Shown: positions 35,933 to 55,996 of the stretch, piece by piece
How the letters are laid out: each line of letters opens with the position of its first letter
Position numbering within the stretch: position 1 is the first letter of the stretch
Assembly (NCBI GenBank): GCA_944391435.1
Contig: CALXTP010000004.1
Span: 2,303-66,302, forward strand
DNA from: an uncultured Alphaproteobacteria bacterium
GTDB taxonomy: Bacteria > Pseudomonadota > Alphaproteobacteria > RF32 > CAG-239
Reading direction: 5' to 3'
DNA length: 64,000 bases
Notes under the pieces: model-generated
The model's input: the letters and a program-made list of their open reading frames with translations, nothing else
Databases searched by the model: none
Told to the model about the DNA's origin: nothing
Program-made: the position numbers and the translations under genes

Positions 35933-36298
35933 ATAAACCGTATTTCGCCGTTTTCAACCCCGGCATTTTTACTTTTTACCGCAAAAAAAGATTGACAACC
36001 CCCACGGATATATCTAACTTAAAACCAAGCCGATACATTATCAGCCAGTGCCTTGAGAAAGGTGCGGGGCTGTCGTAAGCTCTTATATGTCGCGGTGTTG
36101 GATAGCATCGTTAGTTGCTGCTTAAAAAGCAACATATATCCCCGACTGAGAAGGTCGGGGAGCTTTCGGCGCATGTCCAAAGGTGCCTTTATCTCTGAAA
36201 TAGCACCCGAAAGGTTGAAAGAATCATCTCGACATATATGATTTACGAACTTCTCGACCGCCTTTTCCATAGGTGGTTTTTCTTTATGGGGAAGTGCT

Positions 36299-37861
36299 TT
36301 GATGACCGGTTCTTTTTTATCTTTCTTCACAACCGCCACCCGCAAGCTGGATATTCTCCAACAAAAACAAAATCTAATTTTTATATGCAGTTGCACACTT
36401 TTCGCGCTCATAACAATAACGCGCATATTCACCGCTAATTATTTCTTTTTTGATACGGCCGAACATATACATGCCTCATGGCTGGTCAGCATCGGGAAAA
36501 TCCCCTATCGGGATTTTTTTGAACATCATAATCCGTTGCTGTGGTTTTGCCTTGCCCCGCTCACGCAACTGTTTGAAAGAAAGATTTGCCTGATTTTCAT
36601 TGTTCGTTTTGTTGCCGTTATAAGTTGGGCAGCCTGCCTTGCCGTTATATACAAGATAAGCCGAAAATTTTTGTATGACAAACCAAAAGCGCAACTATCC
36701 GTATTGATTTTATTGTCAATCCCCTCCATTTGGGCTGATGCCATAAATATCCGCCCAGACACCTTTATGCTGCTAAGTTTTTTAATGGCCGTATATTTCC
36801 TGTATAATTATCTGGACGGTGCCGGCAGGGCTTCATTGGCTATTTCATATATCTGCTTATCCCTGTCTTTCCTGTTTTTACAAAAAATGCTGTTTCTTGG
36901 CATGGGATTCGCAATAGCCAACCTGTTATTATGGCAACAAAAAAAGATTAAAACGGCCGATATTTGCCTCGCCGCCCTGTATGCGCTTATCCCTCTGATA
37001 ATTTTTCTTTTTTACCTGATAGACAATGATTGTCTGCACACCTGGTTTTACTACAATTTTCCGTTCAACACCCAGCTGAAAAGTTTTTACAAATCCTATA
37101 CATCTGGCCTTTCCGCCCGGCTGGGCACTTTTACAGCCTTATCGCTGCTCGTTTTGGCCAGGTGGTTCCGTCCGACTTGGCAAACGCTTATTATCTGTTG
37201 TTGCGGAATAAGCGCTTTGATGATGGTTAAATTTTTTGCCCCGCACCCCTGGTATTACGTCCCCTATTGGGTATTCGCATCAATCCTTTTAGCCGGCATT
37301 ATCGGCAAAAGCAAATATTTTAGTTTATGGTTTGCCATAATCCTGTATTGCTTCCTGAACACATCAGCAGCACTTCTTCCCAAACAGCACAATATTCTTT
37401 TCGCCCAGACATTGCAAAACATAAAAGATATTATGGAGCATTCTTCAAAACAAGACACCGTGCTCAATCTAAAAAAGGAAACCATCCACCTGTTTAACCA
37501 CGACGCCTTTTATCATTGGTTCGGTTTTCATAATGTTGCTATTTGCGATGCCATCTACAACCGGAAACAGTATTTTGATATAAACACCGCCATAAAAAGC
37601 GCCAAACCGGATATTATCATTTTCGACGGCAATTCATTTTTCCCGGTTGCCCACGATGTTGTTATGACGCAGCGTGAAAACTATCGCATTGCCAGAAACC
37701 AGCATATTATCCAAAAAGCAAGAACGTTCCCGGCAATACTGTCCAAAATAAGCTATCCGCAAGATGACTTCTGGAAAGTTGATAAAAAATGGATAAAACA
37801 GCATTATCAAAAAATAGAAAACACCGATATCTGGAAAAAGCGCCCCGTTCCCGGAACATAA
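36299..37861 (+). CDS. Polytopic membrane protein, putative GT-C-fold glycosyltransferase (paralog 1 of 3)
   Basis: About 11 TM helices and a C-terminal soluble domain. The first extracytoplasmic loop carries the conserved EHIHASWLV..PYRDFFEHHNPL shared with the paralogs at 45489 and 46993. Confidence 0.5.
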   Translation: MMTGSFLSFFTTATRKLDILQQKQNLIFICSCTLFALITITRIFTANYFFFDTAEHIHASWLVSIGKIPYRDFFEHHNPLLWFCLAPLTQLFERKICLIFIVRFVAVISWAACLAVIYKISRKFLYDKPKAQLSVLILLSIPSIWADAINIRPDTFMLLSFLMAVYFLYNYLDGAGRASLAISYICLSLSFLFLQKMLFLGMGFAIANLLLWQQKKIKTADICLAALYALIPLIIFLFYLIDNDCLHTWFYYNFPFNTQLKSFYKSYTSGLSARLGTFTALSLLVLARWFRPTWQTLIICCCGISALMMVKFFAPHPWYYVPYWVFASILLAGIIGKSKYFSLWFAIILYCFLNTSAALLPKQHNILFAQTLQNIKDIMEHSSKQDTVLNLKKETIHLFNHDAFYHWFGFHNVAICDAIYNRKQYFDINTAIKSAKPDIIIFDGNSFFPVAHDVVMTQRENYRIARNQHIIQKARTFPAILSKISYPQDDFWKVDKKWIKQHYQKIENTDIWKKRPVPGT

Positions 37862-37864
37862 AAA

Positions 37865-37941
37865 TGGTGTCAGCGGCGGGACTCGAACCCACTACCCACA
37901 GTTTAGGAAACTGTTGCTCTATCCTGATGAGCTACGCCGAC
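37865..37941 (-). tRNA. tRNA-Arg (anticodon CCU)
   Basis: Hand-folded 77-nt cloverleaf on the minus strand: 7-bp acceptor stem, D-arm GCTC/GAGC, anticodon loop TTCCTAA, T-arm GTGGG-TTCGAGT-CCCGC, discriminator A, encoded CCA. Confidence 0.85.
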
Positions 37942-38051
37942 AACCCAGATACTGGCTTACCGTCAAAAATAATAAAAAGCAAGCAAAATTTTAACACTCC
38001 CGCGATTTTAGCACTTAATTCCCGGTACAAAACGGACATATCCTCCACCGT

Positions 38052-39641
38052 TCAGGCCAAAGCCGCCCGGATAAGCTGCTGGGCATACGGCGTCTGCGGA
38101 TGTGAAAAAATATCGTTGGCCGTCCCTTTTTCCACAATTCTCCCATGGCGCATAACCGCCACTTCATGTGAAATGGCACGCACCGCCCGCATATCGTGAG
38201 AAATAAATAAATAGGCAATACCTGTCATCTTTTGAATTTTTTTAAGCAACTCCAGGATTTCTGCCTGTACCGTCACATCCAAAGCCGATGTCGGCTCATC
38301 TAAAATCATGATTTTCGGTTCAACAACCAATGCTCTTGCAATGGCAATACGCTGCCGTTGTCCGCCGGAAAACTCATGCGGATACTTATCCAGAATATCC
38401 TCGTCCGTTAACCCGACATCGGCCAAAACATTTTTCACCCGTTCTTCCTTCTGCTTTTCCGTAAGTTGTGAAAAATGGACCAACAGCCCCTCTTCCACGA
38501 TTTTCCTTACAGTCATCCGCGGATTGAGGGAATTATACGGGTCTTGAAAAACAATCTGTACATTTTTGCGAAAATCCTTTTCATTGCGGATATGGACGGA
38601 TTTCGCTATCAGGATTTCCCCCTGATAGCGGATAAGGTCCGCCATACACAACCCGAGCGTTGTTTTTCCCGAGCCGGATTCGCCGACAATCCCCAACGTT
38701 TTCCCCTCATACAAAGCCAAAGAAACATCTTGAACGGCATGAATTTCTTTAACCGTTTTGCCTAACAGATTTTTTTTCAGCGGAAAACTGACCGACAAAT
38801 GGCGTGCTTCCATCAGTTTGCGTGACGCAAAATCAACCAGCGGGTTCGTCCGGTAAAACGCCGCCAAAAGCTCTTTCGTATATGGGTGCATCGGCGCGTT
38901 AAAAATATTGCCGACACTCCCCTGTTCCACAATAACGCCATGCCGCATAACCAGCACACGGTTAGCTATTTTCCGTACCAGCATCAAATCATGGGAAATA
39001 AAGATGACGGCCATGCCGAATTTTTCTTTCAGCCGCAGCAACAAATCCAAAATTTGCTTTTGCACCGTTACATCCAAAGCCGTCGTCGGCTCATCGGCAA
39101 TCAAAACTTTCGGCTTATTGGCCACAGCCATGGCAATCATCACCCGTTGCCGCTGTCCGCCGGAAAGTTCAAACGGATAAGCATTCATCCTTTCCCCGGC
39201 ATTTTCTATCCCAACCAGGCGCAGCAGATAACGCGCGCGCGCCCATGCTTTTCTAGCCGAAACTTTTTTATGAACCCGGATAACCTCCGCAACCTGTTCT
39301 CCGATTTTTACCAACGGGTTCAGCGAGCTCATCGGTTCTTGAAAAATCATGCTGATATCATTGCCGCGAATATTCTGCCACTCGCTCTCCGACAATGCCG
39401 TCAGTTCTTTTCCTTCAAACAAAATAGAATTGGTGCTCTTATACAATACTTTTTTCGGATTAATCAGCCCCATCAGTGACAAAGCCGTTACGGATTTTCC
39501 CGAACCGGATTCGCCGACGATAGCCAGCACCTCGCCGGGTTCCACTGCAAAACTGCTGTTATAAACAGCTGAAAACAGCCCGCCCTCGGCATTGATAAAG
39601 CGGACATTCAGGCTTTTAACTTCCAACACCGGTTCCGTCAT
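38052..39641 (-). CDS. yejF: ABC transporter ATP-binding protein with two fused ABC domains (YejF/DppDF-like)
   Basis: Two Walker A sites (GESGSGKS twice), two LSGGQRQR signatures, and two Walker B sites (ILDEPTSALD, LIADEPTTALD). 529 aa, the same as E. coli YejF. Confidence 0.85.
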   Translation of the reverse strand: MTEPVLEVKSLNVRFINAEGGLFSAVYNSSFAVEPGEVLAIVGESGSGKSVTALSLMGLINPKKVLYKSTNSILFEGKELTALSESEWQNIRGNDISMIFQEPMSSLNPLVKIGEQVAEVIRVHKKVSARKAWARARYLLRLVGIENAGERMNAYPFELSGGQRQRVMIAMAVANKPKVLIADEPTTALDVTVQKQILDLLLRLKEKFGMAVIFISHDLMLVRKIANRVLVMRHGVIVEQGSVGNIFNAPMHPYTKELLAAFYRTNPLVDFASRKLMEARHLSVSFPLKKNLLGKTVKEIHAVQDVSLALYEGKTLGIVGESGSGKTTLGLCMADLIRYQGEILIAKSVHIRNEKDFRKNVQIVFQDPYNSLNPRMTVRKIVEEGLLVHFSQLTEKQKEERVKNVLADVGLTDEDILDKYPHEFSGGQRQRIAIARALVVEPKIMILDEPTSALDVTVQAEILELLKKIQKMTGIAYLFISHDMRAVRAISHEVAVMRHGRIVEKGTANDIFSHPQTPYAQQLIRAALA

Positions 39642-40633
39642 CTTTTCCTCTTATCCATGGCATCGCGCACCCCTTCGCCGATAAAGATAAGTGCCGTTAA
39701 AAGCATTGAAAGCACAAAAAAGATGCTCAACCCAATCCACGGCGCCTGCAAATTATCCTTTCCCTGGCGCACCAAATCGCCGAGCGACGGATATTCATGT
39801 CCGAGCCCCAGCCCCAAAAAGTCCAGCGCCGTTAATGCCACAATGGCTCCTGCCATAATAAACGGCACAAACGTAACCGTCGTAACCAATGCATTCGGCA
39901 AAATATGCCGCCACATAATCCGAAAATTCCCCACGCCGATAGCTTTCGCCGCTTTCACATATTCAAAATTGCGCGCCCGCAAAAATTCTGCCCGCACCAT
40001 CCCCGTCAACTCCGTCCATGAAAACAGCAGCAAAATAAGCAGCAGTGTCCAAAACGTCGGCACAAAAATGCTTGCCACAATAATTAAAATAAACATTTGC
40101 GGCATTGAATCCCATATTTCAATCACCCTTTGCAAAACAATATCCGTTTTTCCGCCGAAATATCCCTGCACGGCGCCGGCAAAAATTCCTATAACCGACG
40201 ACAACAGCGTCAAAAGAAATGCAAAAACAAACGACAAACGGATTCCATACAAAAGCCTTGCCGCAATATCCCGGCCTTCCTCATCTGTCCCCAGCCAATG
40301 CCGTTTGGACGGCGGCGCCGGAAAAGGCTCATTCATCTCATAATCCACCGTATTATAAGAAAAAGGGATAGGCGGCATAACCATATACCCGTCCGCCTCT
40401 ATGTTTTTACGGATAAGTTCGTCCTTATAATCTGCTTCAGTCGGGAAATCGCCGCCAAAACGCGCATCGGTATACACCTTAAAAATCGGAAAAAAATACT
40501 CGCCGTCATATTTCAGGACAATCGGCTTGTCATTTGCAATAACTTCAGCCAACAGCGACAAAAGCAGCATAACCGATAACAAAACCAGCGCCGCTTTTCC
40601 CCGTCTATTTTTTATATATTTGCCTGCCTGCAT
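39638..40633 (-). CDS. yejE: ABC transporter permease, DppC/OppC family (YejE-like)
   Basis: N-terminal TM, a long periplasmic loop, and the EAA-type loop AAKAIGVGNFRIMWRHILPN. ATGA overlap with yejF. Confidence 0.8.
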   Translation of the reverse strand: MQAGKYIKNRRGKAALVLLSVMLLLSLLAEVIANDKPIVLKYDGEYFFPIFKVYTDARFGGDFPTEADYKDELIRKNIEADGYMVMPPIPFSYNTVDYEMNEPFPAPPSKRHWLGTDEEGRDIAARLLYGIRLSFVFAFLLTLLSSVIGIFAGAVQGYFGGKTDIVLQRVIEIWDSMPQMFILIIVASIFVPTFWTLLLILLLFSWTELTGMVRAEFLRARNFEYVKAAKAIGVGNFRIMWRHILPNALVTTVTFVPFIMAGAIVALTALDFLGLGLGHEYPSLGDLVRQGKDNLQAPWIGLSIFFVLSMLLTALIFIGEGVRDAMDKRKR

Positions 40634-40737
40634 GGCCTCTCCGCAAAAACAACGTCCTTTATCCCTGTTTGTATACCAATCTGTTGAATAATCAATAATA
40701 AAATAAATTTATTGCCGCTTTTCCTCAGGCACACAAA

Positions 40738-43086
40738 TCATTGTACCGCCGCTGCCGGAGCCGGAGCAACATTCGCTGCCGGTGCTGCCTCTGCCGGAAC
40801 CGGAGCCGGTGCAACATTAGCCGCCGGGGCTACCTCTGCCGGAACAGGAACCGGCGCAGCATTCGCTGCCGGTGCTGCCTCTGCCGGAACAGGAGCCGGC
40901 GCAACATTCGCTGCCGGTGCTGCCGCTGCAGGAACAGGAACCGGTGCAACATTCGCTGCCGGAGCCGCCTCTGCCGGAACCGGAGCCGGCGCAGCAACAT
41001 GTGCCAAAGGAACATTCCTCACTTCATTGTTAAAAGAACGCATCTCCCCGTTATCATCCATTTCCAAAATCAAATCATCTGTCGGAGCATAAACACGGTT
41101 AGATTCAGCCGGCTGCGAAGCTGAAGCTTTCCTCCCTGAATTTACATTTCTCTCTGCGCCAAAAACTTCTTTATTCTTTTGCTTCGCCTGCAATTTTTTC
41201 TGGTACGTCTGGCTTTTTTGCTTATAAACCTCATACCAATCCCGATAATTGGCGGCAATGTTAGATATTTTGCTGCCACGTAAAACCGAATTGTTAATCA
41301 AATTCTGTTTCAAGCTGACGGCTTCATCAGGCTGCATTTTCATATTATCAATCGTATAGCAATAATCCTGATAACGGATAAGTGTTTTTGTAAAATCGCT
41401 CGCCAGGCAGATATTGGCATTAATCAAAAATTTCGGCCGTTTACCTTTGCGTATGGCCAGGCTGACCAATTGATCCTTCACAAAGTTTGCATATCTGCCG
41501 CCGGTCATTCCCGCCAATTCGCGAATATTGCTCACGCCTTGTACAATAACATCGGTTTTACGGCTCTTGGGGCTGGCCTGCATCTCATCCATATATTCCT
41601 GCAGTTTGCCGATAACACACTTGGCCTGGTCGGCATATGCCTTTCGTTTTTCGTCAATACCGCCTCTGGTCAATGAATTATCTTTCATCGCCACCCATTC
41701 TTTCCGCGGTTTCAAATTGCAAAACTCATCATATATATAAATATCGGAAGGCAAATCCACATAAACCATATAAACTTGTCCCCATGGATCCCTGATATAA
41801 TCTTCCGTCACTTCATCAATCAGGCTGACAGCCCCTTCCTGTGAAACCCGGCGATTCTCAGCCGTAACTTTATACCCTCTGATAGCAGACATCCCCGCCA
41901 GCAAATCTGCCACCGACTTCAATTCCTTGCTTTTAATGCTCAGCACCCATTCGGCCAGCAGGGCATAAACATTTTGTTCCAAAGTCCGGTTAGAATCATA
42001 CAACGGCACCGTTTTATAACTTTTAACCACACATCTGTCCGTATTCAGATTGTTGCCCGTAACACAAAAATTAAACCCTGGCATGGCATAAGTGCTGAGC
42101 CCATAGCCGTTTTCCCGCAAATAATCATACAAACGGTTTTCCTCCAGGCTGAAATAATCCAGTCCGCCGTGAATAAACTCCCATTTATTGATAAACTCCG
42201 AATATGCCCGATTCCCGCTGGTTGTACTGGTATAGTCAACTTGATTAAAGATATCAATAATATTGCTTACCGTATCATTTTTCTTAACAAAAGCATTCGG
42301 ATAAACTTCAAAACCGTTAATGGCAAAAAAGCCAATCATCAAATCGCGCAACTCGCGCAAATTATGGTCTTTCATACTGCTCAAAAACTGATAAGACGGA
42401 AAACGCGGCAGCATAAAATAAACCATATTTCCTTCCCGGTCTTTGCCTGCCTGTGAAGCAAGTGCTTTAACTTCCGTATATTCCCCTTTGGGCTGTTGGA
42501 TAAACTCGTTATTTTTAATACCCAATACGCCGGCAAACATCAAAACCATCGTAACAAAAAGCATGGCAAATGTTGAGCGAAAAGCAAAAAAGATAATAAC
42601 GCCCAACAACAAGCCGACCAGCCATGTACTGGGAACAATGCCGATAAAAGTCAGCCAGCTGGCTTTTTTTTCCAGCCACTTTTCAATAAACGTATCCGCA
42701 TCAAACAACGCAAACTGGTAAAAGAATACGATTGTCACCAAAAGTGTTACCACCGCGCACACGACATTTTGTACATCTTTTGAAAAAGATAAAATCAGCA
42801 TAAGCAAAAAGGCAACAACAAAAACCCCGCCGCAAATAACCAACACTGCTTCATTAACTTTGCCGTTTTCAATCAATTTGCCGTTGATGGAATAAATAAA
42901 CATCACAAAATCTATTGTAAACAGCAAAAAGATATAAAAAGCTCGCAAAAACTTATCATAAAAGTGGTTGGCATTTCCCGTCCAGCTGGCAAATCTGCTT
43001 GAACGGCTTTTTTTTCTTAAAACCAAAGGCTGATTAACTCCCTCGTTCATAATTCCCTCTGTCAAAATTGGACTTTTGTTTACCAT
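40738..43086 (-). CDS. Large membrane protein: 5-6 N-terminal TM helices, roughly 450-aa extracytoplasmic domain, C-terminal Pro/Ala-rich 15-aa tandem repeats
   Basis: 782-aa ORF. The C-terminus carries the repeat APAPVPAEAAPAANV about 5.5 times. The globular domain was not recognised. Confidence 0.55.
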   Translation of the reverse strand: MVNKSPILTEGIMNEGVNQPLVLRKKSRSSRFASWTGNANHFYDKFLRAFYIFLLFTIDFVMFIYSINGKLIENGKVNEAVLVICGGVFVVAFLLMLILSFSKDVQNVVCAVVTLLVTIVFFYQFALFDADTFIEKWLEKKASWLTFIGIVPSTWLVGLLLGVIIFFAFRSTFAMLFVTMVLMFAGVLGIKNNEFIQQPKGEYTEVKALASQAGKDREGNMVYFMLPRFPSYQFLSSMKDHNLRELRDLMIGFFAINGFEVYPNAFVKKNDTVSNIIDIFNQVDYTSTTSGNRAYSEFINKWEFIHGGLDYFSLEENRLYDYLRENGYGLSTYAMPGFNFCVTGNNLNTDRCVVKSYKTVPLYDSNRTLEQNVYALLAEWVLSIKSKELKSVADLLAGMSAIRGYKVTAENRRVSQEGAVSLIDEVTEDYIRDPWGQVYMVYVDLPSDIYIYDEFCNLKPRKEWVAMKDNSLTRGGIDEKRKAYADQAKCVIGKLQEYMDEMQASPKSRKTDVIVQGVSNIRELAGMTGGRYANFVKDQLVSLAIRKGKRPKFLINANICLASDFTKTLIRYQDYCYTIDNMKMQPDEAVSLKQNLINNSVLRGSKISNIAANYRDWYEVYKQKSQTYQKKLQAKQKNKEVFGAERNVNSGRKASASQPAESNRVYAPTDDLILEMDDNGEMRSFNNEVRNVPLAHVAAPAPVPAEAAPAANVAPVPVPAAAAPAANVAPAPVPAEAAPAANAAPVPVPAEVAPAANVAPAPVPAEAAPAANVAPAPAAAVQ
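40741..40995. repeat. 45-bp tandem repeat array, about 5.5 units, coding
   Basis: Units gcaacattcgctgccggtgctgcctctgccggaacaggagccggc with point variants. Near-identical to the array at 44600..44865. Confidence 0.85.
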
Positions 43087-43164
43087 ACGCCATATTTATT
43101 AAATAAAAGCTTAACCTATTTAAAAAGCCGAAAAATTTTCTAAAAAAAATAATCACTATTATTC

Positions 43165-43192
43165 TTGAATTTAAAAAAAAATCCCCTATAAT
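43165..43192 (+). promoter_or_regulatory. Near-consensus sigma70 promoter of ssrA
   Basis: TTGAAT (43165-43170), a 16-nt spacer, TATAAT (43187-43192). The predicted TSS is about 43199. Confidence 0.5.
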
Positions 43193-43199
43193 TCTTCTT

Positions 43200-43506
43200 A
43201 GTATGTGCTTCGGCACACACTTTGATACGAAAAGCCGCATGAAATAGATATATTGGACCCGGGGGCGGTACCCGGCACCTCCACCATAGACGGGGGTGAA
43301 ACAGGTTTGACAGTGTATAGTAAAGATGCGTGGGCTGTATTCGGCAAGACACCACCGTTATCGGTTCAAATCAAATAAACGCAAATGATAATTTTGCACC
43401 GGTTGCCGTAGCCGCATAAGGCAAAGCAACAAATGAAATTCTTCTGGTTATGGTTAACCGGGAGTGGGGAAGGAGCCGCCCAGCAACAGAAGGGCTCATT
43501 TTATTT
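43200..43506 (+). ncRNA. ssrA: tmRNA (ssrA), circularly permuted two-piece type as in alphaproteobacteria
   Basis: The acceptor 3' end GGCACCTCCACCA ends at 43286 after a T-arm CCGGG-GGCGGTA-CCCGG. Five nt later the 5' acceptor strand GGGGGTG (43292) pairs with CACCTCC and includes a G3:U70 pair. The tag ORF GCA AAT GAT AAT TTT GCA CCG GTT GCC GTA GCC GCA TAA (43381-43419) gives ANDNFAPVAVAA. A terminal hairpin at 43473-43497 is followed by a T-rich run. Confidence 0.75.
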
Positions 43507-43531
43507 AATATCTGCAGAAAGACATTTGGGA

Positions 43532-43996
43532 ATGACAGAATTTGTAACCGAAATAAATTATGACAAGCTGATTGAAAAGGCCTTAAAACAAGTTGTCGTT
43601 GAAGCATTAAAGATTGCGGAAGCGCAAGGGCTCCCCGGAGAAAACCATTTTTACATTACATTTAAGACAAATTTCCCCGGCACCTCCGTTCCAAGTGATT
43701 TGCAAATCCAATACCCGGAAAATATGACCATCGTTTTACAGCATCAATATGCCAATCTCCGGGTCGGAACCGATTCTTTTTCTGTTGAGCTGAGTTTTGG
43801 CGGCCGCCCGCAAACGCTCGTCATTCCTTATGACGCCATCACCTATTTTGCCGACCCGTATGCCAAATTCGGTTTGAGCTTTTCGTTTTATGAAAACGGC
43901 GACGTCCACTCGCTTGATGAAATTGAACCTGAAAAGAAAGTTGCCGGCGAAACCGCACAAATTATCTCCTTTGACAGCTTTAGAAAGAAAAAATAA
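43532..43996 (+). CDS. sspB: ClpXP adaptor SspB (stringent starvation protein B-like)
   Basis: HFYITFKTNFPGTSVP...IVLQHQYANLRVGTDSFSVELSFGGRPQTLVIPYDAITYF parallels E. coli SspB HLVVDVTLPGVQVP...IVLNIAPRAVGNLELANDEVRFNARFGGIPRQVSVPLAAV. The basic C-terminal tail ...SFDSFRKKK resembles a ClpX-binding peptide. The start is taken at Met 43532. Confidence 0.6.
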   Translation: MTEFVTEINYDKLIEKALKQVVVEALKIAEAQGLPGENHFYITFKTNFPGTSVPSDLQIQYPENMTIVLQHQYANLRVGTDSFSVELSFGGRPQTLVIPYDAITYFADPYAKFGLSFSFYENGDVHSLDEIEPEKKVAGETAQIISFDSFRKKK

Positions 43997-44229
43997 TGCA
44001 AAAATATTCCGTTGTTATTGCCGGAAAACATTACACCAGCATTTCTTTGGAAAAAGAATTTTATCAGCAGCTTAACATATTGGCATTGGAACAACGCAAG
44101 CCCGTAAACCAGTTGATTACGGAAATTGACAGTACAAAAACCGTTTCCAACTTATCGTCGGCACTACGCCTTTATATATTAAAATCCTTGCAAGACAAGC
44201 TCAACTGCTTGGAATCTTCCGTTTCATAA
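43996..44229 (+). CDS. Ribbon-helix-helix domain protein (RHH_4 family)
   Basis: GKHYTSISLEKEFYQQLNILALEQRKPVNQLITEID...NLSSALRLYIL matches the RHH_4 pattern (HxTSxxLExxFWxxL...LIxEID...NLSSAxRLFxL). Confidence 0.6.
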   Translation: MQKYSVVIAGKHYTSISLEKEFYQQLNILALEQRKPVNQLITEIDSTKTVSNLSSALRLYILKSLQDKLNCLESSVS

Positions 44230-44251
44230 GATAAGAAAAAATTATAAACAA

Positions 44252-45397
44252 TTAAAGGCCGCCATCTTCATCCGCTGCTTCCGGCAAAACGGGATTTTCC
44301 GTTATACTCTCCAAAGACTTTTCTGCTGCATTTTCCGATAAAGTTTCGCTTTGGATATCTTTATGCTCCCCTTCATTCTTCACCGCATCGCCTGTTGCTC
44401 GCGACTCAGCTTCTTCCTCAGAAACTGCTTCAGACTGTGCCTTTAGCAAATCGGCCAATCCTCCGGCCGATACAGCACCATGCAATTCAATTTCTTGGGC
44501 ATGGCTTGTTTCCCGATTGGTTTCATCTGATTTTTCAACAACTGCTTCCGCATCTGCTGCACCTTCTTTAACCTCTGCCCCTGCCGGCGATTCGCCTGCT
44601 ATGGCATTCGCCGCTGGTGCCGCCCCTGCCGGAACAGGAGCCGGCGCAACATCTACCGCCGGAACAGCCTCTGCCGGAACCGGAGCCGGCGCAACATCCG
44701 CCGCCGGTGCTGTCGCTGCAGGAACTGGAGCCGGCGCAACATTCGCTGCCGGTGCCGCCTCTGCCGGAACTGGAGCCGGCGCAACATCCGCCGCCGGTGC
44801 CGCCTCTGCCGGAACTGGAGCCGGCGCAACATTCGCTGCCGGTGCTGCCTCTGCCGGAACAGCTATATCTTCAGCAGCAATACCTTCTTTAACATCCTCC
44901 CCTGTGGACGGCATTTCAGCATCTGTACTTATCGCAGGCGCCACACCTTCTTTTACTTTTTTAAATCCGCCCTTTCTCTTCTTAAAATCAATTTTACCCT
45001 GTTCTGCCTCTTTATCCCGGGATAGTTTGGCATTATAATTTTCGCTCTTCGGACGTGCAGCTTCAGCCGCCTCCTCTTCCATCTTCCGCTTGGTTTCCTT
45101 AACTTCCTGAACAATAGCATCCGGAATAAAGCCGGTATCGCCGCTTTCTACAGCCTTGGTAACCGCCTCAAATTTAAATGCCTCATATTTATTCTGATAC
45201 CAAGTCAAAATTTCTTCCGGTTTAACCCCCTGACTCATCGGATAATATGCTGCGCCTCCGGCAGCCAACGCCAAAATAAACAATATCCACAGCGGATGCC
45301 TGAGAATAAACAGCAACACAAAAATCGGAAAAGTGATAACACTCAGCACTATATAAAAAAATCTGAACAAACTACTCCGTTTTTTCGGCTCGGCCAT
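44252..45397 (-). CDS. Membrane-anchored protein with Pro/Ala-rich 15-aa tandem repeats and an acidic C-terminal tail
   Basis: Two N-terminal TM helices, a K/E-rich segment, about 6 repeats of AAPAANVAPAPVPAE, then a D/E/S-rich tail. Confidence 0.55.
   Translation of the reverse strand: MAEPKKRSSLFRFFYIVLSVITFPIFVLLFILRHPLWILFILALAAGGAAYYPMSQGVKPEEILTWYQNKYEAFKFEAVTKAVESGDTGFIPDAIVQEVKETKRKMEEEAAEAARPKSENYNAKLSRDKEAEQGKIDFKKRKGGFKKVKEGVAPAISTDAEMPSTGEDVKEGIAAEDIAVPAEAAPAANVAPAPVPAEAAPAADVAPAPVPAEAAPAANVAPAPVPAATAPAADVAPAPVPAEAVPAVDVAPAPVPAGAAPAANAIAGESPAGAEVKEGAADAEAVVEKSDETNRETSHAQEIELHGAVSAGGLADLLKAQSEAVSEEEAESRATGDAVKNEGEHKDIQSETLSENAAEKSLESITENPVLPEAADEDGGL
44600..44865. repeat. 45-bp tandem repeat array, about 6 units, coding
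   Basis: gcaacattcgctgccggtgccgcctctgccggaactggagccggc and variants. The same repeat family as 40741..40995. Confidence 0.85.
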
Positions 45398-45488
45398 TTT
45401 TTCCTCCCGGCTTTTCCGTTATTGACAATACCTTAATCATAGACGCAGATGTTTAAAACATACTTAACGGCAGTTTGCTAAATTGCCA

Positions 45489-47030
45489 TCAATCTTCATA
45501 AGACCACTGTCCTGTCGCCACATTCAGGACACACTTTTTCTGCTCATATTCCGGTTTCAAACGATAGATAGAACCAAACCTTGTCGGCTGATAGTATTTT
45601 TCAACAACAGCCGGATCAATATAGTGTACAACTTCCGGTTTTCGCGTTTCATCGGAAAATTTGTTAAAATAGCTCCGCCCGTAGATAAATTTAGGCCTTA
45701 AACGCAAAATAAGCCCATTCACGTCAGGTTTCGGATAAATTCCCGTTTCTTCACCGATAACATCAAGTTGCCCGATAAGCTGCCAATAATAGGCCGGATC
45801 TTTGCCAAATAAATTGTACATCATGCCATCGCCATTAAAAACATAATCACAAGGGTTGATGGAGCGTGCAATATAGTCCGGCAAATATTCCCGCCCGTTC
45901 TGAGACAAAATCAGTCCCCGTTGAAACAAAAACACATGATAAAAAGCAAAATACAATCCGGCTATAATCAGCCAAACAACCAAATGGCACTTTTCATAAA
46001 GCCTCGCCAACAGCGGAACAGCGCATAAAACCGCAAAATAAAGCAACAGCCAATAATAATACGAATATGGCGAAAAATAAAATTTCCGCTGCACAAATTC
46101 CGCGACAAACAACAAAGCAATAACCCGCCAATATCGGTTTTTGCCCCAAAGAGCCACCACCGTTCCCACAAAAGCAGCCACAGACCAGACCAACATATAT
46201 GTCGGCAGTTCAACCACCCGGCCGAGATCAAACCCCCGTTCCAAATTCAGATTAAACGTATAATTGGAATCATAATAAAGCCCGACCATATCATAATGCA
46301 CCAAATACAAAATAAAAACGGCCACCATGAGTAACGGCAGAATCATGGCTCTGGCCATATCTGCCGTCTTAATGTATTTTTTGTACCAAAAATAAAGCCC
46401 CGTAATCCCCAAGACAGCCAGCGGAAACAACGCCTTTTGTGCAAAAAAGAACGATAATGCAAACCAAACGAACGCCACCGCCAGATGCCGAAAATTTTGC
46501 TGTTTGAGATACAAAAAATAATAATAAAGCCCTCCCGTCAGGCAAAAAACCATATAATTATCCGGCCGAAAATCCACGGCATACAGCTTATAACTCGGCG
46601 TTGCAATAGCGGCCGCGGCCACTACGCCCCACAGTTTATTGCTCAAAAATTCGGCATTTATGCGATATACATACACCAGCGACTTCAAAAAAACCAAAAA
46701 GGAAATCAGGCACACAACTTCCGTTATCGTTGCATTATAAGCAAATAAAGCCGTTAATGGCGCAAACAGATACCACATCAGCGGATTATGGTGCTGGAAA
46801 AAATCCCGATAAGGCACCAGCCCCTGCATAATCAAAAAGCTGGAATGGATATGCTCTATATTATCCCCGTTTTGCGTCGGCACATGCGCCGTCATCATCA
46901 CATACATAATAGATACGGATACCAGATAAACCCCCAACGCCCCGAAAGCACCGAATTTATCTATAAGTGCATAAAAAGACCGGCCCATTTGTTTAATTCT
47001 TTCCATATTGCCAAACTCCCGTCTTTTCAT
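45489..47030 (-). CDS. Polytopic membrane protein, putative GT-C-fold glycosyltransferase (paralog 2 of 3)
   Basis: EHIHSSFLIMQGLVPYRDFFQHHNPLMWY motif and about 11 TM helices. The start is uncertain (47030, 47006 or 46988). Confidence 0.5.
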   Translation of the reverse strand: MKRREFGNMERIKQMGRSFYALIDKFGAFGALGVYLVSVSIMYVMMTAHVPTQNGDNIEHIHSSFLIMQGLVPYRDFFQHHNPLMWYLFAPLTALFAYNATITEVVCLISFLVFLKSLVYVYRINAEFLSNKLWGVVAAAAIATPSYKLYAVDFRPDNYMVFCLTGGLYYYFLYLKQQNFRHLAVAFVWFALSFFFAQKALFPLAVLGITGLYFWYKKYIKTADMARAMILPLLMVAVFILYLVHYDMVGLYYDSNYTFNLNLERGFDLGRVVELPTYMLVWSVAAFVGTVVALWGKNRYWRVIALLFVAEFVQRKFYFSPYSYYYWLLLYFAVLCAVPLLARLYEKCHLVVWLIIAGLYFAFYHVFLFQRGLILSQNGREYLPDYIARSINPCDYVFNGDGMMYNLFGKDPAYYWQLIGQLDVIGEETGIYPKPDVNGLILRLRPKFIYGRSYFNKFSDETRKPEVVHYIDPAVVEKYYQPTRFGSIYRLKPEYEQKKCVLNVATGQWSYED

Positions 47031-48564
47031 CTTTTACACAATCGCGTCGGATATATTCTTTTTTCAGGCGATATAATCCGCGCGGATATTCAAAATAAAC
47101 CTCTTTCTGAAGTTCAAAATTCCATTTTCCGTCGTTGACGATTTCCGTCGGCTCATATAATTTATCCAGCACCTCCTTATTAAAGGTATAAATTGTTTGC
47201 TCTTCATCAAAAAAACTCTTTATATCATCAACCCAGATAAACTTAGGGCGATATTTTTGGATAAGCGCACCATAATCATCATAATCATGCAGCCCGATTT
47301 TTGCACCGACAATCGACAGACGCCCCGGAATAAACCAATAATATTCCGGAGTTTTGCTAAACAAAAACAAAATTCCACCATTGCCTGTTAAAACATAATC
47401 GCACCGGTTTGTTTGTTCCCACAAATACTCCAAAACCGTCTTGTGATATTTATAAACAATATCATTATAAAAGCACATACCCATATAAATAAGATAACAC
47501 TGTATCTCCACAAACACGATAAGCAGCAGGATTTTCCATTTTTCTGCCAATTTCATGACACCGGCAGCAGCTAACGGAACGGCAAAGAAATACGCTTCGT
47601 AATAGTAATAAACATGTGGGGAAAAATAAAAGACCTTGCTGGCATAAATAAGTACAAACAGCCACACCCAGCAACGAAAATACCGCCCCATATATTTATA
47701 CAGGGCAATTCCCGAAAATATCGCCGCGCCAAACATAATATTGGCAATATCCCAAGCTCTGTTTATACGCCTGTCGCCAAATAGATCCACCATCTCCCGG
47801 TTAAAAGCAAAATTCATTTGATAGTAAACATCCCATAAACCGGCAGACCATAAATACAAAGCAAGGCACGCCGCACTGGCCAGCGGAAAAATAATGGCTG
47901 AGCCAAAATCGCGCCATTTCATTTCCCGCGTATAAAGAAGCCAGCCAGACCAAACCGCAACCAATGGAAAATAAAACAACGCCTTTTGGCAAAACAAAAA
48001 AGCAACCCAGAAAGCGGCATACGAAAAAATCAAATCGCGGCGTTTCTTATCGCGCATATAGCAAAACAGATAATATATGCCCGCCATAACGCAGGTAAAC
48101 ATATAATTATCCGGCTTGAAATAAACATAATACAAAAATATTCCGGGCGCCAGCAGCATCAACACGGATAACAAAGCCGCCGTCCGCCCGCTTAAAAACT
48201 CCGTAATAACTTTATATAAAAAAACAAGCCCTATAACAAAAAACAAAAAAGTGATATAATTAACGACTCCGAATACATGAATATTTCTCTCAAGTAAACC
48301 TACAACCGGAGCAAACAAATACCATAACAGAGGATGATGATGTTCAAAAAAATCACGATACGGCACAGCCCCCTGATGGACTAAAAAACTGGCCTGGATA
48401 TGTTCGGCAATATCGCCTTCCGCCCACTCAAAATACACTGTAGCAAGGCTGACAAGCCCCAATATCACCAATAAATTAACAAACAGGGTAGCATCAATCC
48501 ATATCGGAAAGCGCCGCCACACCGTCTGCCAAATATTTTCCAGTCCGTGTTTCACGTACCCCAC
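46993..48564 (-). CDS. Polytopic membrane protein, putative GT-C-fold glycosyltransferase (paralog 3 of 3)
   Basis: EHIQASFLVHQGAVPYRDFFEHHHPLLWY motif. GTG start 7 nt after the malQ stop. Confidence 0.5.
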   Translation of the reverse strand: MGYVKHGLENIWQTVWRRFPIWIDATLFVNLLVILGLVSLATVYFEWAEGDIAEHIQASFLVHQGAVPYRDFFEHHHPLLWYLFAPVVGLLERNIHVFGVVNYITFLFFVIGLVFLYKVITEFLSGRTAALLSVLMLLAPGIFLYYVYFKPDNYMFTCVMAGIYYLFCYMRDKKRRDLIFSYAAFWVAFLFCQKALFYFPLVAVWSGWLLYTREMKWRDFGSAIIFPLASAACLALYLWSAGLWDVYYQMNFAFNREMVDLFGDRRINRAWDIANIMFGAAIFSGIALYKYMGRYFRCWVWLFVLIYASKVFYFSPHVYYYYEAYFFAVPLAAAGVMKLAEKWKILLLIVFVEIQCYLIYMGMCFYNDIVYKYHKTVLEYLWEQTNRCDYVLTGNGGILFLFSKTPEYYWFIPGRLSIVGAKIGLHDYDDYGALIQKYRPKFIWVDDIKSFFDEEQTIYTFNKEVLDKLYEPTEIVNDGKWNFELQKEVYFEYPRGLYRLKKEYIRRDCVKDEKTGVWQYGKN

Positions 48565-48571: not shown

Positions 48572-50707
48572 CTAGCGCCATTTTTTCACCGCGGCAATAT
48601 GGCGATGATACATTTCGCTGTCCGCAATATCTTCTACCTCAACCGGAAGTTTGCTGCGCCAATTCGGATATAAGGGCACATCTGTCCCCGGCAGGTTTTG
48701 TATCTTCTCGGATTGGAAAATATCTTCCGGCTGCAACATAAACACTTCGCTGTTGGATTTTGCCATATAGGCATGAACAGCTTCTTCAATCCCCTCCGGA
48801 TAGCCGTCGCCGTAAAGATAATCAGATTTTCTCAACCGGTCCGCCGGCCATACGCCCTCGCCGTCCAATGCCTGCAGCAAAAGCCATCGTTCATGCTCAC
48901 GCCAGTGATACCCGTTCTGCATTTCCTCTTCGGTATATAGGCCCAACTCATGCATCAAGCCGATTTCCCTGGCATACCACCAGGCTTTTAACGGCGGCAT
49001 ATCATGTGTCCCGACTGAAGCGAAATAAGCACGCTCATATTCTTCCGGCTTTTTCATTGTGCCGTTTTCATCTTTACGTTCAACCCACAACACGCCGAGA
49101 GAATAAATATTACGTTCCCGGAGCATATCCTGAAAACCGTCCGACACATTGCCGATACATTCGCCGACCACGACACATTTGTTCAAATAGCTTTCCAGCG
49201 CCAAAATATTGAACATATCCTCGGCATTATACATCAGATACGTTCCTTCTTCGCCTTTGTCGGGAATCAAATACAAACGTGAAAGCCCCATCACATGGTC
49301 AATCCGAACAGCTCCGGCATAACGCATATTGGCGCGCAAAATACGGATAAACGGCTTATATGCCCGTTCTTTGAGTTCAAAAGGGTTAAACGCCCCCAAC
49401 ATCCATTTCTGCCCGATGGGAAAGCTGTTATCCGGCGGCGCCCCTGCACCGCTGTCTTGCATATAAAGATACTTATCGCCCCACACTTCGGCACTGTTTT
49501 TGGAAACGCCTACCGGCAAATCCCGATAAAGTCCGACAGCCAGGCCGCGTTCTTTTATTTTAGTAAAAACTTCCTGCAGCTGCCTGTCTGCCTCAAATTG
49601 TAAAAATTTGAAAAAATCTATCTCTTCGCTGTGCCCGGCCACAAATTTTTCCATTTCGTTGCCCATAGACATTTTATCAATGCTTTTAACTTTTTTTTGC
49701 CCGTTCTTTTGGGCATTGTGCCTCATTTCTTCATACGCCTGAAAAACAGCCAGCCTCTGCAATTCTCCCGTATCATTCGCCGCAAATTCTTCAAATTTTT
49801 TGTAATAATCGGATTTGCGTTGCTTCATCACCCGTGCAAAAATACGCCGCAAAGCCTTTATCTTCGCCGTATAAACTGTCGTATAGTCAATATTTTCGCT
49901 TTCCCTGGCCGTGGCAATTGCCGCCTCGTCCTTATCCTGCGCCTCATAAAAAGGCACCCTTTCCACATCAATATAAATCGGATTTAAAAATAAACGGCTG
50001 ACCGATGCATACGGGCTGGCACATTCGGGATAATCATGCTGTAACACATTAAGCGGGTTAAGCCCGATAATATCGCCGCCGCTTTGCGCCAAAACATCAA
50101 CCATCCGGCTCAAATCCGTAAAATCACCCACGCCCCAATTCCGGCGGCTTTTCAGCGAATACAGCTGCAGCGCAAAGCCAAACAATTTATCTTTGCCTTT
50201 CTTATCCAACCCATAACATGTACACGGAGCCACCGCCAATATGGTCTTATATGTAGCTTTGGCCGTTTTAACATCTATGTCATAATATCCGGGCGCCATA
50301 TCGGCGTCAATATCATAGCGCAATTTAACATATGACGTACGAGATTCTTGCCTTTTCTCCATTTCGGTCAAACACCCCGGCAACGGTTGAAAATCTCCGC
50401 TTCCTTCCGGCGCATAAAAAAAAGCTGCTCCGCTCTCGGCTTCCTTTTCCGTCAACACGATATCAATATTTTTATTATCTGTTTTTCGCACATACACCAC
50501 GTCCAAAGCATATTGCCAGCGCTTTTTTTCTATCCTTTCCAAAGACTTGCGGATTTCCTCGTCGTTTTTGGCATGATAGCCGAGGCTTTCAATAAAAAAG
50601 CGCACCAAGTCATCGCTGGCTTCTCGGGTTTTAACAGAACCGCATGTATATGTAAAACGGGTACAAACGCCCAATTTTTCCGCCAAAACGTCTAAAATTC
50701 CGCTCAT
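48572..50707 (-). CDS. malQ: 4-alpha-glucanotransferase (amylomaltase), long MalQ form
   Basis: 711 aa with the GH77 catalytic region (RIDHVMGL..., GECIG, GTHDMPP). Confidence 0.9.
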   Translation of the reverse strand: MSGILDVLAEKLGVCTRFTYTCGSVKTREASDDLVRFFIESLGYHAKNDEEIRKSLERIEKKRWQYALDVVYVRKTDNKNIDIVLTEKEAESGAAFFYAPEGSGDFQPLPGCLTEMEKRQESRTSYVKLRYDIDADMAPGYYDIDVKTAKATYKTILAVAPCTCYGLDKKGKDKLFGFALQLYSLKSRRNWGVGDFTDLSRMVDVLAQSGGDIIGLNPLNVLQHDYPECASPYASVSRLFLNPIYIDVERVPFYEAQDKDEAAIATARESENIDYTTVYTAKIKALRRIFARVMKQRKSDYYKKFEEFAANDTGELQRLAVFQAYEEMRHNAQKNGQKKVKSIDKMSMGNEMEKFVAGHSEEIDFFKFLQFEADRQLQEVFTKIKERGLAVGLYRDLPVGVSKNSAEVWGDKYLYMQDSGAGAPPDNSFPIGQKWMLGAFNPFELKERAYKPFIRILRANMRYAGAVRIDHVMGLSRLYLIPDKGEEGTYLMYNAEDMFNILALESYLNKCVVVGECIGNVSDGFQDMLRERNIYSLGVLWVERKDENGTMKKPEEYERAYFASVGTHDMPPLKAWWYAREIGLMHELGLYTEEEMQNGYHWREHERWLLLQALDGEGVWPADRLRKSDYLYGDGYPEGIEEAVHAYMAKSNSEVFMLQPEDIFQSEKIQNLPGTDVPLYPNWRSKLPVEVEDIADSEMYHRHIAAVKKWR

Positions 50708-50717
50708 AAATCTCTCC

Positions 50718-55973: not shown

Positions 55974-55996
55974 GATGTGCTGAAAAGCAAAAAAAA

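Follow-up and report, generated by a model that had tools for sequence, protein, structure and literature searches.

Three paralogous genes and their surroundings

The 64,000-nt stretch of DNA analysed here (the window), from an uncultured gut alphaproteobacterium, carries three open reading frames for proteins of about 520 amino acids, all of them present with the coordinates and strands that the original prediction had given:

36299..37861, + strand: copy A, a predicted 520-aa GT-C-fold membrane glycosyltransferase; solitary
45489..47030, - strand: copy B, a 513-aa paralog (505 aa from Met9); downstream member of a tandem pair
46993..48564, - strand: copy C, a 523-aa paralog; upstream member of the tandem pair

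Their shared ancestry was supported by BLASTP, with expectation values far from chance (E=1e-80 and 33% identity over 532 columns for B versus C; E of about 1e-39 to 1e-46 and 27-31% identity for A versus B or C). At the DNA level, similarity among the three genes is kept solely around the loop motif described below, indicating that the duplications are old. The most likely start of copy A is the ATG at 36302, which yields 519 aa and matches identical database proteins; the gene caller placed the start of B at Met9 (505 aa) and that of C three codons later. B and C stand in tandem on the minus strand, overlapping by 38 nt if the longest B start is used. As had also been proposed, the third copy lies apart: A ends 4 nt ahead of a tRNA-Arg(CCT) gene (37865-37941), at a distance of 7.6 kb from B. 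Searches of the window by tblastn and with the family HMM, on which copy B scored 480 bits, revealed no fourth or degraded copy. Phylogenetically, C falls in the "up" and B in the "down" clade of pair type 1, and purifying selection acts on both, with dN/dS values of about 0.08 for B and about 0.16 for C (versus the L052 ortholog).

Immediately ahead of C on the minus strand, separated by gaps of 7-38 nt, are three genes identified with Pfam:

52829..55126, - strand: glgB
50718..52790, - strand: glgX
48572..50707, - strand: malQ, its stop codon 7 nt before the start of C

The same glgB-glgX-malQ-C-B order was found in 8 related MAGs, and the five genes probably share a transcription unit, with no functional link to the glycogen genes shown. 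The tight linkage of C and B to these genes is not accounted for by the GT-C envelope model presented below. Promoter and terminator scans around the tandem pair gave signals at the level of the shuffle background and are uninformative as to operon structure. Downstream of the pair lies a conserved Pro/Ala-repeat protein whose repeats hold neither Ser nor Thr and whose two N-terminal TM helices would put them in the cytoplasm. Annotation of the whole window revealed no donor synthase or flippase and no homolog of ArnC, ArnE or ArnF; likewise, no arnBCADEF-like genes, no GtrA-like flippase or GtrB-like polyprenyl-phosphate sugar synthase linked to A, B or C, and no glgA, glgC or exporter were detected there.

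Comparison of the window with conspecific strains by blastn (L085 and L087) revealed a shortened allele of copy A:

35978..36851, no strand: 874-bp segment missing in some strains of the same species

The sequences flanking this deletion are 98-99% identical on both sides between L085 or L087 and the window, and the missing segment comprises the upstream region and codons 1-184 of A, including TM1, the motif loop and the RPD motif; the predicted catalytic half of A is thereby lost. A full-length allele is present in L081 and in L088-L090. Homopolymer-driven phase variation was considered and is unsupported, as the longest runs are of 7 nt and the truncated alleles arose from a clean deletion. 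Hypervariability of the B/C locus between strains had been suspected because the homolog search gave no near-identical B or C; it was ruled out by strain L088, where B shows 98.6% amino-acid identity and the B/C region 98.2% DNA identity.

Fold and conserved external loops

Searches against Pfam gave PMT_2 (PF13231, GT-C clan) as the only meaningful family match, with scores above the gathering cut-off of 26.1 bits for A (43.8 bits) and C (28.4 bits) and just short of it for B (22.2 bits); most homologs have a precomputed PF13231 match. The AlphaFold model of A (pLDDT 92.9) contains 11 TM helices and a C-terminal alpha/beta domain. TM1 (residues 24-45) is followed by a two-helix first external loop (EL1, 46-96; helices 50-64 and 80-91) and ten more TM helices, in agreement with the layout that had been read from the sequence. 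Structural similarity to solved GT-C enzymes was significant, placing the proteins in the GT-C fold superfamily (Pfam clan CL0111), to whose polytopic architecture (7-13 TM helices) with a structured loop after TM1 the model conforms. The proposed GT-C nature is thus supported both by the PMT_2 matches and by the modelled architecture. Two outcomes had been named as arguing against it, a match to a permease or polymerase and loss of the motif from homologs; no such match appeared, and the motif is kept. The likeness drawn at the outset to ArnT, PMT_2 and PglB holds as regards the GT-C fold and PMT_2, while the proteins are orthologs of none of ArnT, PMT and PglB. A count of positive charges according to the positive-inside rule, with crude helix boundaries, was undecided (9 in, 8 out), so the topology was taken from fold homology.

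The soluble C-terminal domain is present as predicted:

37379..37858, + strand: copy A, C-terminal alpha/beta domain, about residues 361-520, predicted periplasmic

Its supposed CDYV..G.G signature occurs only in B and C, the corresponding sequence in A being QDTVLNLKK; the signature found family-wide is YYWF ... KPKFI. The domain gave no significant structural match, and no CBM-type domain was found in it. Sequence searches of the PDB with 3-sequence and 75-sequence profiles returned nothing relevant, and NCBIfam holds no model for the family, its best match being a weak one of B to LA_3751/3752 (20.9 bits; cut-off 200). NCBI's automatic annotation reads "glycosyltransferase family 39"; this presumably goes back to the PMT_2 domain and does not show that the proteins belong to GT39.

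Translated in all six frames, the whole window contains PYRDFF[EQ]HH.PL at three sites and no others, 36503-36538 (+), 46779-46814 (-) and 48328-48363 (-), and the longer pattern EHIxxSxLxxxGxxPYRDFFxHHxPLxW is carried by A, B and C, both as originally described. Counted from the invariant Asp that precedes the motif, the three loops read:

36452..36544, + strand: copy A EL1 motif, residues 52-82, DTAEHIHASWLVSIGKIPYRDFFEHHNPLLW, with D52, E55, H56, D72, H76 and H77
48322..48414, - strand: copy C loop motif, residues 51-81, DIAEHIQASFLVHQGAVPYRDFFEHHHPLLW
46773..46865, - strand: copy B loop motif, residues 56-86, DNIEHIHSSFLIMQGLVPYRDFFQHHNPLMW

In 75 homologs with 19-41% identity to A, the invariant residues are D52, E55, H56, G66, P69, D72, F73, H77, W82, P153, D154, Q195 and N257, and D52 is also invariant in 101 locus members. 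The expected invariant loop Asp exists, and the protein has three invariant Asp residues (D52, D72 and D154) and not one. D52, 7 residues past the end of TM1 in the AlphaFold model, stands at the start of the loop and fits by position the catalytic acidic residue that had been postulated in EL1; the Asp of PYRDFF (D72) is a second invariant one. Three further conserved elements lie beyond EL1:

36752..36760, + strand: copy A R152-P153-D154, where the fourth TM helix begins on the periplasmic side; P153 and D154 invariant
36875..36886, + strand: copy A F-L-Q195-K196 in the third external loop; Q195 invariant, K196 in 95/101 members
37055..37069, + strand: copy A N253-F-P-F-N257 within the fourth external loop, which is helical; N253 in 99/101 and N257 in 100/101 members

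The helices of this fourth external loop (EL4) span residues 246-264 of the copy A model. In the 11-TM model all invariant residues sit in loops on one side, the external one, and the core residues are also kept in representatives from a word-index-free search. Compared between paralog groups, EL1 stands out as the best-conserved region (52%). The C-terminal domain (62%) and EL4 (59%) keep their sequence among members of a group, but between groups conservation falls to 27%.

Relationship to ArnT and other GT-C enzymes

To relate these residues to a solved enzyme, we used the roles described for ArnT (PMC5377068, PMC7801869), whose first periplasmic loop contains functionally required Tyr and Lys residues in the RYA and YFEKP motifs (PMC5377068); the "RxD" motif of GT-C enzymes corresponds to motif M3 in PMC7801869. 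Position 2 of the PMT_2 model falls on H77 in A, on H81 in B and on K61 of YFEKP in E. coli ArnT, and the match on B begins precisely at H81, the second His. From the Asp to the His/Lys there are 25 residues (30 in ArnT), from the His/Lys to the EL2 Asp 77 (74 in ArnT) and from the His/Lys to the EL3 Lys 119 (118 in ArnT). By position, D52 matches ArnT D31 (E. coli) or D55 (C. metallidurans) (PMC7801869), R152-P153-D154 matches the RxD motif and D135 (E. coli) or D158 (C. metallidurans), and K196 matches K179 (MTKGF). In A, B and C the RYA position reads E-H-I and the YFEKP position F-F-E/Q-H-H-x-P, the place of the required Lys being filled by the second His of the motif and not by an acidic residue. 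A His-His in place of the ArnT Lys is worth a note, not surprising. As EL1 His residues the family has H56, H76 and H77; in ArnT, EL1 provides a Lys and EL4 an H-E-H triad.

Alignment of the family profile with the single E. coli ArnT sequence by hhalign gave a probability of 0.6%, and a shallow 9-sequence ArnT profile gave 1.7%, a weak test; the motif region is aligned unreliably, and a homolog search aimed at deepening the ArnT profile yielded only relatives at least 76% identical. As these profile alignments were not significant, the mapping onto ArnT rests on the start of the Pfam model, residue spacing and fold, not on superposition. On this basis, D52 after TM1 would act as the canonical EL1 Asp (ArnT D55, Pmt1 D77), and H77, with H76 in this subgroup, could stand in for the YFEKP Lys, which is in contact with both lipid phosphate and metal. 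The RPD Asp, D154, would be the equivalent of ArnT D158, K196 the EL3 Lys and Y319 the equivalent of ArnT Y345, with E55, H56 and D72 as candidates for extra metal or sugar ligands.

No match to PF02366 was obtained for A, B or C even at E<=10, whereas E. coli ArnT scored 211 bits, and the combination of PF02516 and WWDxG that distinguishes STT3/PglB/AglB (GT66) was not found. The absence of RYA, YFEKP and PF02366 indicates that the three proteins are not orthologs of ArnT or PMT. The clade is an uncharacterised branch of GT-C enzymes and not a new kind of system. It differs from ArnT (GT83; PDB 5EZM/5F15) by its multiple copies per genome and the lack of an arn operon nearby, and from PMT/POMT (GT39) and TMTC1-4 by the lack of PF02366, MIR, PMT_4TMC and TPR domains. 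The mycobacterial GT-C enzymes Emb, Aft and PimE gave much lower structural scores and carry other extra domains (CBMs); no DPA-pathway genes were seen here.

The motif clade comprises at least 1,024 representatives at 50% identity (E<=1e-30), and the genome matches seen were almost all from MAGs of gut and rumen Alphaproteobacteria, one of which has at least 8 family copies. Tandem pairs recur in a fixed order, and the paralogs are scattered among housekeeping genes, as would be expected if they shared unlinked donors. Only 1 of 79 loci (L013) has a flippase or synthase near a family member, which lies there beside a GtrA flippase, a methyltransferase and an ArnC-like GT2; apart from occasional LptE or MlaC neighbours, nothing specific to LPS was found in the neighbourhoods. 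A search of plasmids and phages with copy A (tblastn) gave no match. Our literature search yielded no paper on the family, and what it found on RF32 consists of microbiome surveys and reviews.

Possible function and its implications

Taken together, homology, fold and modelled architecture suggest that A, B and C are probably anciently diverged paralogs of an uncharacterised GT-C clade, closest to ArnT in structure, which would transfer sugars to the envelope in the periplasm. By analogy with known enzymes, their most likely role is the transfer of sugars from a polyprenyl-phosphate donor to envelope glycans, each paralog with its own acceptor. Such donors could be shared and produced by unlinked synthases of the GtrB/ArnC type, and each paralog group may be specific for a different acceptor or linkage through its divergent EL4 and C-terminal domain. 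More speculatively, the acceptors would be envelope glycoconjugates such as LPS lipid A-core, O-antigen or another periplasm-exposed glycan, with copy A providing an accessory, strain-variable decoration.

Rhizobium leguminosarum, also an alphaproteobacterium, has several ArnT-like membrane enzymes, the paralogs RgtA, RgtB, RgtC and RgtD; rgtA and rgtB are neighbours, and the synthase of the lipid-linked GalA donor that all of them share is encoded elsewhere. This is the closest functional analogy to the present family: many paralogs, one donor and different envelope acceptors. RgtA and RgtB use the outer Kdo of LPS as acceptor for GalA (PMC4402001). In Gtr systems, undecaprenyl phosphate is loaded by a GT2 synthase and the donor carried across the membrane by a small flippase, and a GT-C enzyme whose periplasmic parts are acceptor-specific modifies the completed glycan (PMC11127046). 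The logic that we infer for the family is the same as that of GtrA/GtrB/Gtr* in Shigella and Salmonella and of GT136 ORF12 in Citrobacter youngae, and a strain-variable presence such as that of copy A is typical of these decorations. In contrast to Gtr systems, neither the window nor 78 of the 79 loci shows a synthase or flippase linked to the GT-C gene, phage and plasmid copies are lacking, and so is a CBM-type domain.

Other functions were weighed against this one. The three proteins could be PMT/TMTC-type protein O-glycosyltransferases moving a hexose (e.g. mannose) from polyprenyl-phosphate to Ser/Thr of proteins in the periplasm or outer membrane, with B and C as a putative Pmt1-Pmt2-like heterodimer, but this is unlikely given the lack of PF02366 (on which ArnT scores so highly), PMT_4TMC and MIR domains, and given that ArnT was the best structural match, with more residues covered (414 vs 331). 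The protein encoded downstream of the pair also speaks against it, since its repeats offer no Ser/Thr and are likely cytoplasmic. Genuine ArnT (GT83) orthologs, which would modify lipid A phosphates with L-Ara4N or a similar amino sugar and so make the cell resistant to cationic peptides, are highly improbable: this reading is largely refuted by the motif tests described above (RYA and YFEKP; PMC5377068), and the Pfam and hhalign results, the absence of arnBCADEF-like genes nearby and a model with 11 TM helices instead of 13 point the same way, while at least eight paralogs in one MAG would be ill-suited to a single lipid A modification. Least probable of all, to the point of being barely credible, are inactive GT-C-like scaffolds, comparable to PIG-U/GAB1 in the GPI transamidase, or glycan polymerases or ligases in place of single-sugar transferases.

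The position of C and B raises a further possibility, that they serve alpha-glucan metabolism together with glgB-glgX-malQ, building or decorating an extracytoplasmic alpha-glucan or capsule-like glucan from lipid-linked glucose. The spacing from glgB to B, between a 38-nt overlap and a 38-nt gap with C only 7 nt after malQ, and the order kept in the 8 related MAGs favour it, as does L015, where a family member of a different clade follows a distinct malQ-like gene (only 30% identical) at a distance of about 0.8 kb. Nevertheless, the syntenic MAGs are close relatives and not independent, their glgB genes being 83-95% identical, and the remaining paralog groups are all found in unrelated housekeeping contexts. 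GlgB, GlgX and MalQ are enzymes of the cytoplasm, on the other side of the membrane from an outward-facing GT-C active site, and the window holds no glgA, glgC or exporter, so that we regard such a role as very unlikely. A bolder version of the envelope hypothesis is doubtful as well, namely that PY-x-DFF-x-HH proteins would deserve CAZy-level rank as a GT-C family of their own, with a donor or metal site reorganised around His residues, an abutting PRK07208-type flavoenzyme in some subfamilies, tandem C-B proteins as obligate heterodimers and a strain-variable surface glycan code. If it were true, a flavoenzyme-aided unusual sugar (e.g. oxidised or ring-contracted) would be displayed on the surface and would matter for the persistence of gut Alphaproteobacteria in the host.

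Returning to periplasmic sugar transfer to the envelope as the preferred function, it is of use for the surface biology of gut microbes, while its value for enzymology is modest, as it would add one more uncharacterised GT-C branch, already loosely labelled "glycosyltransferase family 39". Residues D52, E55, H56, D72, H77, D154, K196, N253, N257 and Y319 constitute a ready mutagenesis plan, and the 874-bp deletion offers a ready natural comparison between strains. Metagenome assemblies are our sole source on the gut and rumen Alphaproteobacteria that carry the family, and we found no description of their envelope. That one MAG encodes at least eight such glycosyltransferases facing outward strongly hints at an elaborate glycan on the cell surface, and the deletion of copy A in some strains of the same species suggests that this glycan varies between strains. 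Such a surface would be exposed to host immunity and to phages.

The three copies and their variation between strains

The original prediction of three paralogous membrane proteins was borne out in placement and strand, all three ORFs (A, B and C) being found where expected. When the 64-kb window was read in six frames, their proposed common loop motif, PYRDFF[EQ]HH.PL, occurred exactly three times, one match per ORF, and the longer loop pattern D-x-x-EHIxxSxLxxxGxxPYRDFFxHHxPLxW was present in A, B and C alike. B and C are indeed tandem, same-strand neighbors, with C upstream and B downstream, and A lies beside a tRNA gene as described, tRNA-Arg(CCT) beginning 4 nt past it. The C-terminal CDYV..G.G element, attributed to all three copies, was detected in B and C only. 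No fourth or decayed copy was found in the window with tblastn and the family HMM.

Paralog copies and directly associated features
36299..37861, + strand: copy A, 520-aa ORF
45489..47030, − strand: copy B, 513-aa ORF
46993..48564, − strand: copy C, 523-aa ORF
48572..55126, − strand: glgB, glgX and malQ, packed tightly with C and B on one strand
35978-36851: 874-bp segment, deleted in several metagenome contigs with 98–99% nucleotide identity to the window

In BLASTP comparisons, B matched C with E = 1e-80 (33% identity) and A matched B or C with E of about 1e-39 to 1e-46 (27–31% identity), and the DNA of the three genes could be aligned across the motif region only. Judged from these alignments, the copies are clearly homologous, yet old. 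The real start of A is probably the ATG at 36302, as identical 519-aa database proteins begin there.

The 874-bp deletion removes the region upstream of A and its codons 1–184, including TM1, the motif loop and RPD, leaving a remnant ORF of 319 aa or shorter; its edges are clean, with no obvious direct repeat at the junctions. Other conspecific contigs carry an intact A, one of them with B at 98.6% identity and C present. Copy A is thus a dispensable gene that is polymorphic between strains, which is often the case for accessory enzymes that modify the surface. A word-indexed protein search recovered A's own 90% cluster, and the best values for B and C were 57% and 52% among the matches listed. 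A conspecific contig (L088:15971-18505) carries both B and C, and the missing near-identical B and C clusters are probably a search artefact.

GT-C fold and conserved residues

The proposal of a GT-C architecture was supported by Pfam, in which PMT_2 (PF13231, GT-C clan; cut-off 26.1 bits) was the sole meaningful family for the three proteins: A (43.8 bits) and C (28.4 bits) passed, and B (22.2 bits) fell just under. NCBIfam and PDB sequence searches gave no useful match. An AlphaFold2 model of A, made from a 75-sequence alignment, was confident (pLDDT 92.9, pTM 0.93) and had the anticipated layout: TM1 is followed by a first external loop of two helices, ten further TM helices and, at the C-terminus, an alpha/beta domain. 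On the PMT_2 matches and this predicted model we regard the GT-C fold as established. The automatic database label for these proteins is "glycosyltransferase family 39".

Among 75 homologs with 19–41% identity to A, residues D52, E55, H56, G66, P69, D72, F73, H77, W82, P153, D154, Q195 and N257 were invariant, and Y70, F74, H76, P79, L80, N253 and Y319 nearly so. Three Asp rather than one are invariant. As retrieval favored the motif (homologs through a word index, genome loci through the pattern DFF[EQ]HH[NH]P), it was rechecked in the 150 best-ranked representatives from a HMMER search that was exhaustive and used no word index. DFF.HH.P was present in 105 of the 134 new proteins, and the 29 exceptions all retained D-x-x-E-H, P-[YF]-x-D and the second His, with H76 replaced by N, V, S or P and F74 or P79 variable. 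The core of the motif is kept in these representatives, but its strict form is not kept in all of them; PYRDFF(E/Q)HHxPL thus marks this subgroup, and across the wider family the motif takes a looser form. The same search placed at least 1,024 representatives (50% identity) in the family at E ≤ 1e-30 and 3,574 at E ≤ 1e-10.

A comparison of the GT-C/PMT clan ties conserved motifs to ArnT residues (PMC7801869), and the family has invariant residues, the candidate counterparts, at each of six such places.

Clan landmarks in external loops (EL; PMC7801869) and putative family counterparts (copy A numbering)
EL1 start: Asp pair, ArnT D55/E56, Pmt1 D77/E78; family D52
Second EL1 helix start: basic residue touching metal and lipid phosphate, ArnT E84/K85; family FFE-H76-H77
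EL2: RxD, ArnT D158; family R/K-P-D154
EL3: Lys; family Q195-K196
EL4: metal ligands, ArnT H265-E266-H267; family N253/N257
EL5: Tyr close to phosphate, ArnT Y345; family Y319

We infer this mapping from the start of the PMT_2 match and from landmark spacings rather than from a superposition, a direct profile-profile alignment of the family to ArnT having been insignificant. The PMT_2 match starts at model position 2, and the residue aligned there is H77 in A, H81 (the second His) in B and, for E. coli ArnT, K61 of YFEKP. In the family, the EL1 Asp precedes the His/Lys by 25 residues (ArnT, 30), and the His/Lys is followed by the EL2 Asp after 77 residues (ArnT, 74) and by the EL3 Lys after 119 (ArnT, 118).

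Genomic context and family expansion

The gene order is glgB, glgX, malQ, C and B, with C starting 7 nt past malQ and a Pro/Ala-repeat membrane protein of 381 aa following 91 nt after B. Neither glgA nor glgC was found in the window. Upstream of glgB, at 55993-56024, is a strong hairpin that resembles a bidirectional terminator.

Other features of the window
7373..8305, + strand: N6/N4 DNA methyltransferase
8372..9637, + strand: 421-aa protein without Pfam match, after the methyltransferase gene
15184..16035, − strand: ORF without Pfam match (E ≤ 1e-4)
19955..20968, − strand: ORF without Pfam match (E ≤ 1e-4)
33348..34451, − strand: ORF without Pfam match (E ≤ 1e-4) or NCBIfam match
40738..43086, − strand: 782-aa polytopic membrane protein that includes a large soluble portion
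40757-40993: 45-bp tandem array, 5.3 copies, C-terminus of the 782-aa protein
43161-43500: permuted alpha-type tmRNA (ssrA), tag ANDNFAPVAVAA
43433..43996: sspB, longest ORF, first 68 nt overlapped by the tmRNA
44605-44860: 45-bp tandem array, 5.7 copies, inside the 381-aa protein
59625..61139, + strand: ORF without Pfam match (E ≤ 1e-4) or NCBIfam match
61136..61684, + strand: ORF without Pfam match (E ≤ 1e-4) or NCBIfam match

The tmRNA type identifies the host as an alphaproteobacterium. Translation of sspB probably begins near 43532, since homologs align only from residue 27–34 on. Flanking ssrA and sspB, the genes for the 782-aa and 381-aa proteins contain arrays about 85–88% identical to each other, in both of which the repeat codes for one 15-aa Pro/Ala unit (APAPVPAEAAPAANV); conspecific length differences (782 vs 755, 807 or 830 aa; 381 vs 342 aa) are probably due to repeat copy number. 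The 782-aa protein had no match in Pfam, NCBIfam or PDB sequences and is kept at the same position in 7 related MAGs (53–82% identity). The methyltransferase and the 421-aa protein may be a restriction-modification pair, and the last two ORFs, overlapping by 4 nt, may form an operon.

One genome for each species of Bacteria and Archaea was scanned, yielding 411 confirmed family stretches; of the best 80, nearly all came from MAGs of uncultured Alphaproteobacteria from the guts of humans, ruminants and other animals. The closest species representative among the matches listed was an "uncultured Acetobacter sp." MAG (glgB 95% identical), and MAG JAZNKG01 has at least 8 members among the loci kept. 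A neighbor-joining tree of 101 members resolved about ten orthologous groups. Slightly overlapping same-strand tandem pairs occurred at 20 of 79 loci and are of three separate types; upstream and downstream genes are distinct clades in each, indicating that pair order has been retained since each duplication. In pair type 1, C is the upstream and B the downstream member, and A belongs to another clade. Purifying selection acts on B and C, with dN/dS against orthologs in the closest MAG of about 0.08 and 0.16, respectively (neighboring genes, 0.02–0.08), all approximate because dS is close to saturation.

Other paralog groups neighbor housekeeping genes (for example valS, pgk, gap, lptE, holA, clpX, nth, uvrC, tsaD, pgsA and a HAD hydrolase). 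At 24 of 79 loci, in two subfamilies (L001, L002, L003, L008, L010, L022 and 18 more, e.g. L037:8384-9952), a PRK07208-type FAD oxidoreductase abuts the family member on the same strand. This FAD/NAD-binding protein of ~525 aa (NCBIfam NF005546/PRK07208 "hypothetical protein", about 800 bits) is distantly like CrtI, HemY and UDP-galactopyranose mutase, and has no homolog in the window. At another locus, a cluster (L013:6010-9656, − strand) divergent from a family member (9944..11452, + strand) encodes a flippase resembling GtrA (145 aa), a SAM methyltransferase of 223 aa, a GT2 of the ArnC/GtrB kind (318 aa; identity to E. coli ArnC, 33%) and an orphan of 550 aa without Pfam match, which may be another GT-C; the cluster looks like a three-component periplasmic glycosylation module.

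Predicted function

A, B and C are predicted, with good confidence, to be active GT-C glycosyltransferases moving a sugar from a polyprenyl-phosphate donor, a donor type inferred from the fold, to a periplasmic-face acceptor. D52 and D154 would be the canonical acidic pair, and H77, K196 and Y319 would grip the donor phosphate. The donors would be supplied by unlinked synthases, and our guess for the acceptor is an envelope glycan such as LPS. No polyprenyl-phosphate sugar synthase or flippase was found in the almost fully annotated window. The same donor/acceptor logic is known from three-component systems of the Gtr and GT136 types (PMC11127046); another example is Rhizobium, whose RgtA/B put GalA on the outer Kdo of LPS (PMC4402001).

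The proteins would work in an ArnT/PMT-type manner, yet lie outside those families. PMT-like protein O-glycosylation, possibly via B-C heterodimers, is unlikely; PMT-specific domains are absent from the family, as is the WWD motif of STT3. A role linked to the adjacent alpha-glucan genes, which we hold to be improbable, would fit the position of a family member of a different clade (locus L015) downstream of a distinct malQ-like gene. In 7–8 MAGs the genes stand in the same order, glgB-glgX-malQ-GT-C(-GT-C)-repeat protein-sspB-782-aa protein-ABC transporter, but these are close relatives and their synteny is weak evidence of function. True ArnT function is very improbable: the first periplasmic loop of ArnT has two functionally required motifs, RYA and YFEKP (PMC5377068), neither of which occurs in A, B or C; PF02366, on which the E. 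coli protein scores 211 bits, is also missing, and no arn genes are nearby. Least probable of all is a non-catalytic or polymerase role. A confident transporter or polymerase match, the outcome set against the original proposal, did not arise.

Between paralog groups, conservation peaks by a wide margin in EL1 (52% identity), and the C-terminal domain and EL4, with 62% and 59% identity within groups, have 27% between them. This pattern is expected if the paralogs have a common donor chemistry and different acceptors. Mycobacterial Emb/Aft enzymes likewise use one common lipid-linked arabinose donor. The enzyme class is well known; the branch to which A, B and C belong is uncharacterised and already recognised by Pfam, and each of its paralog groups may have its own acceptor specificity.
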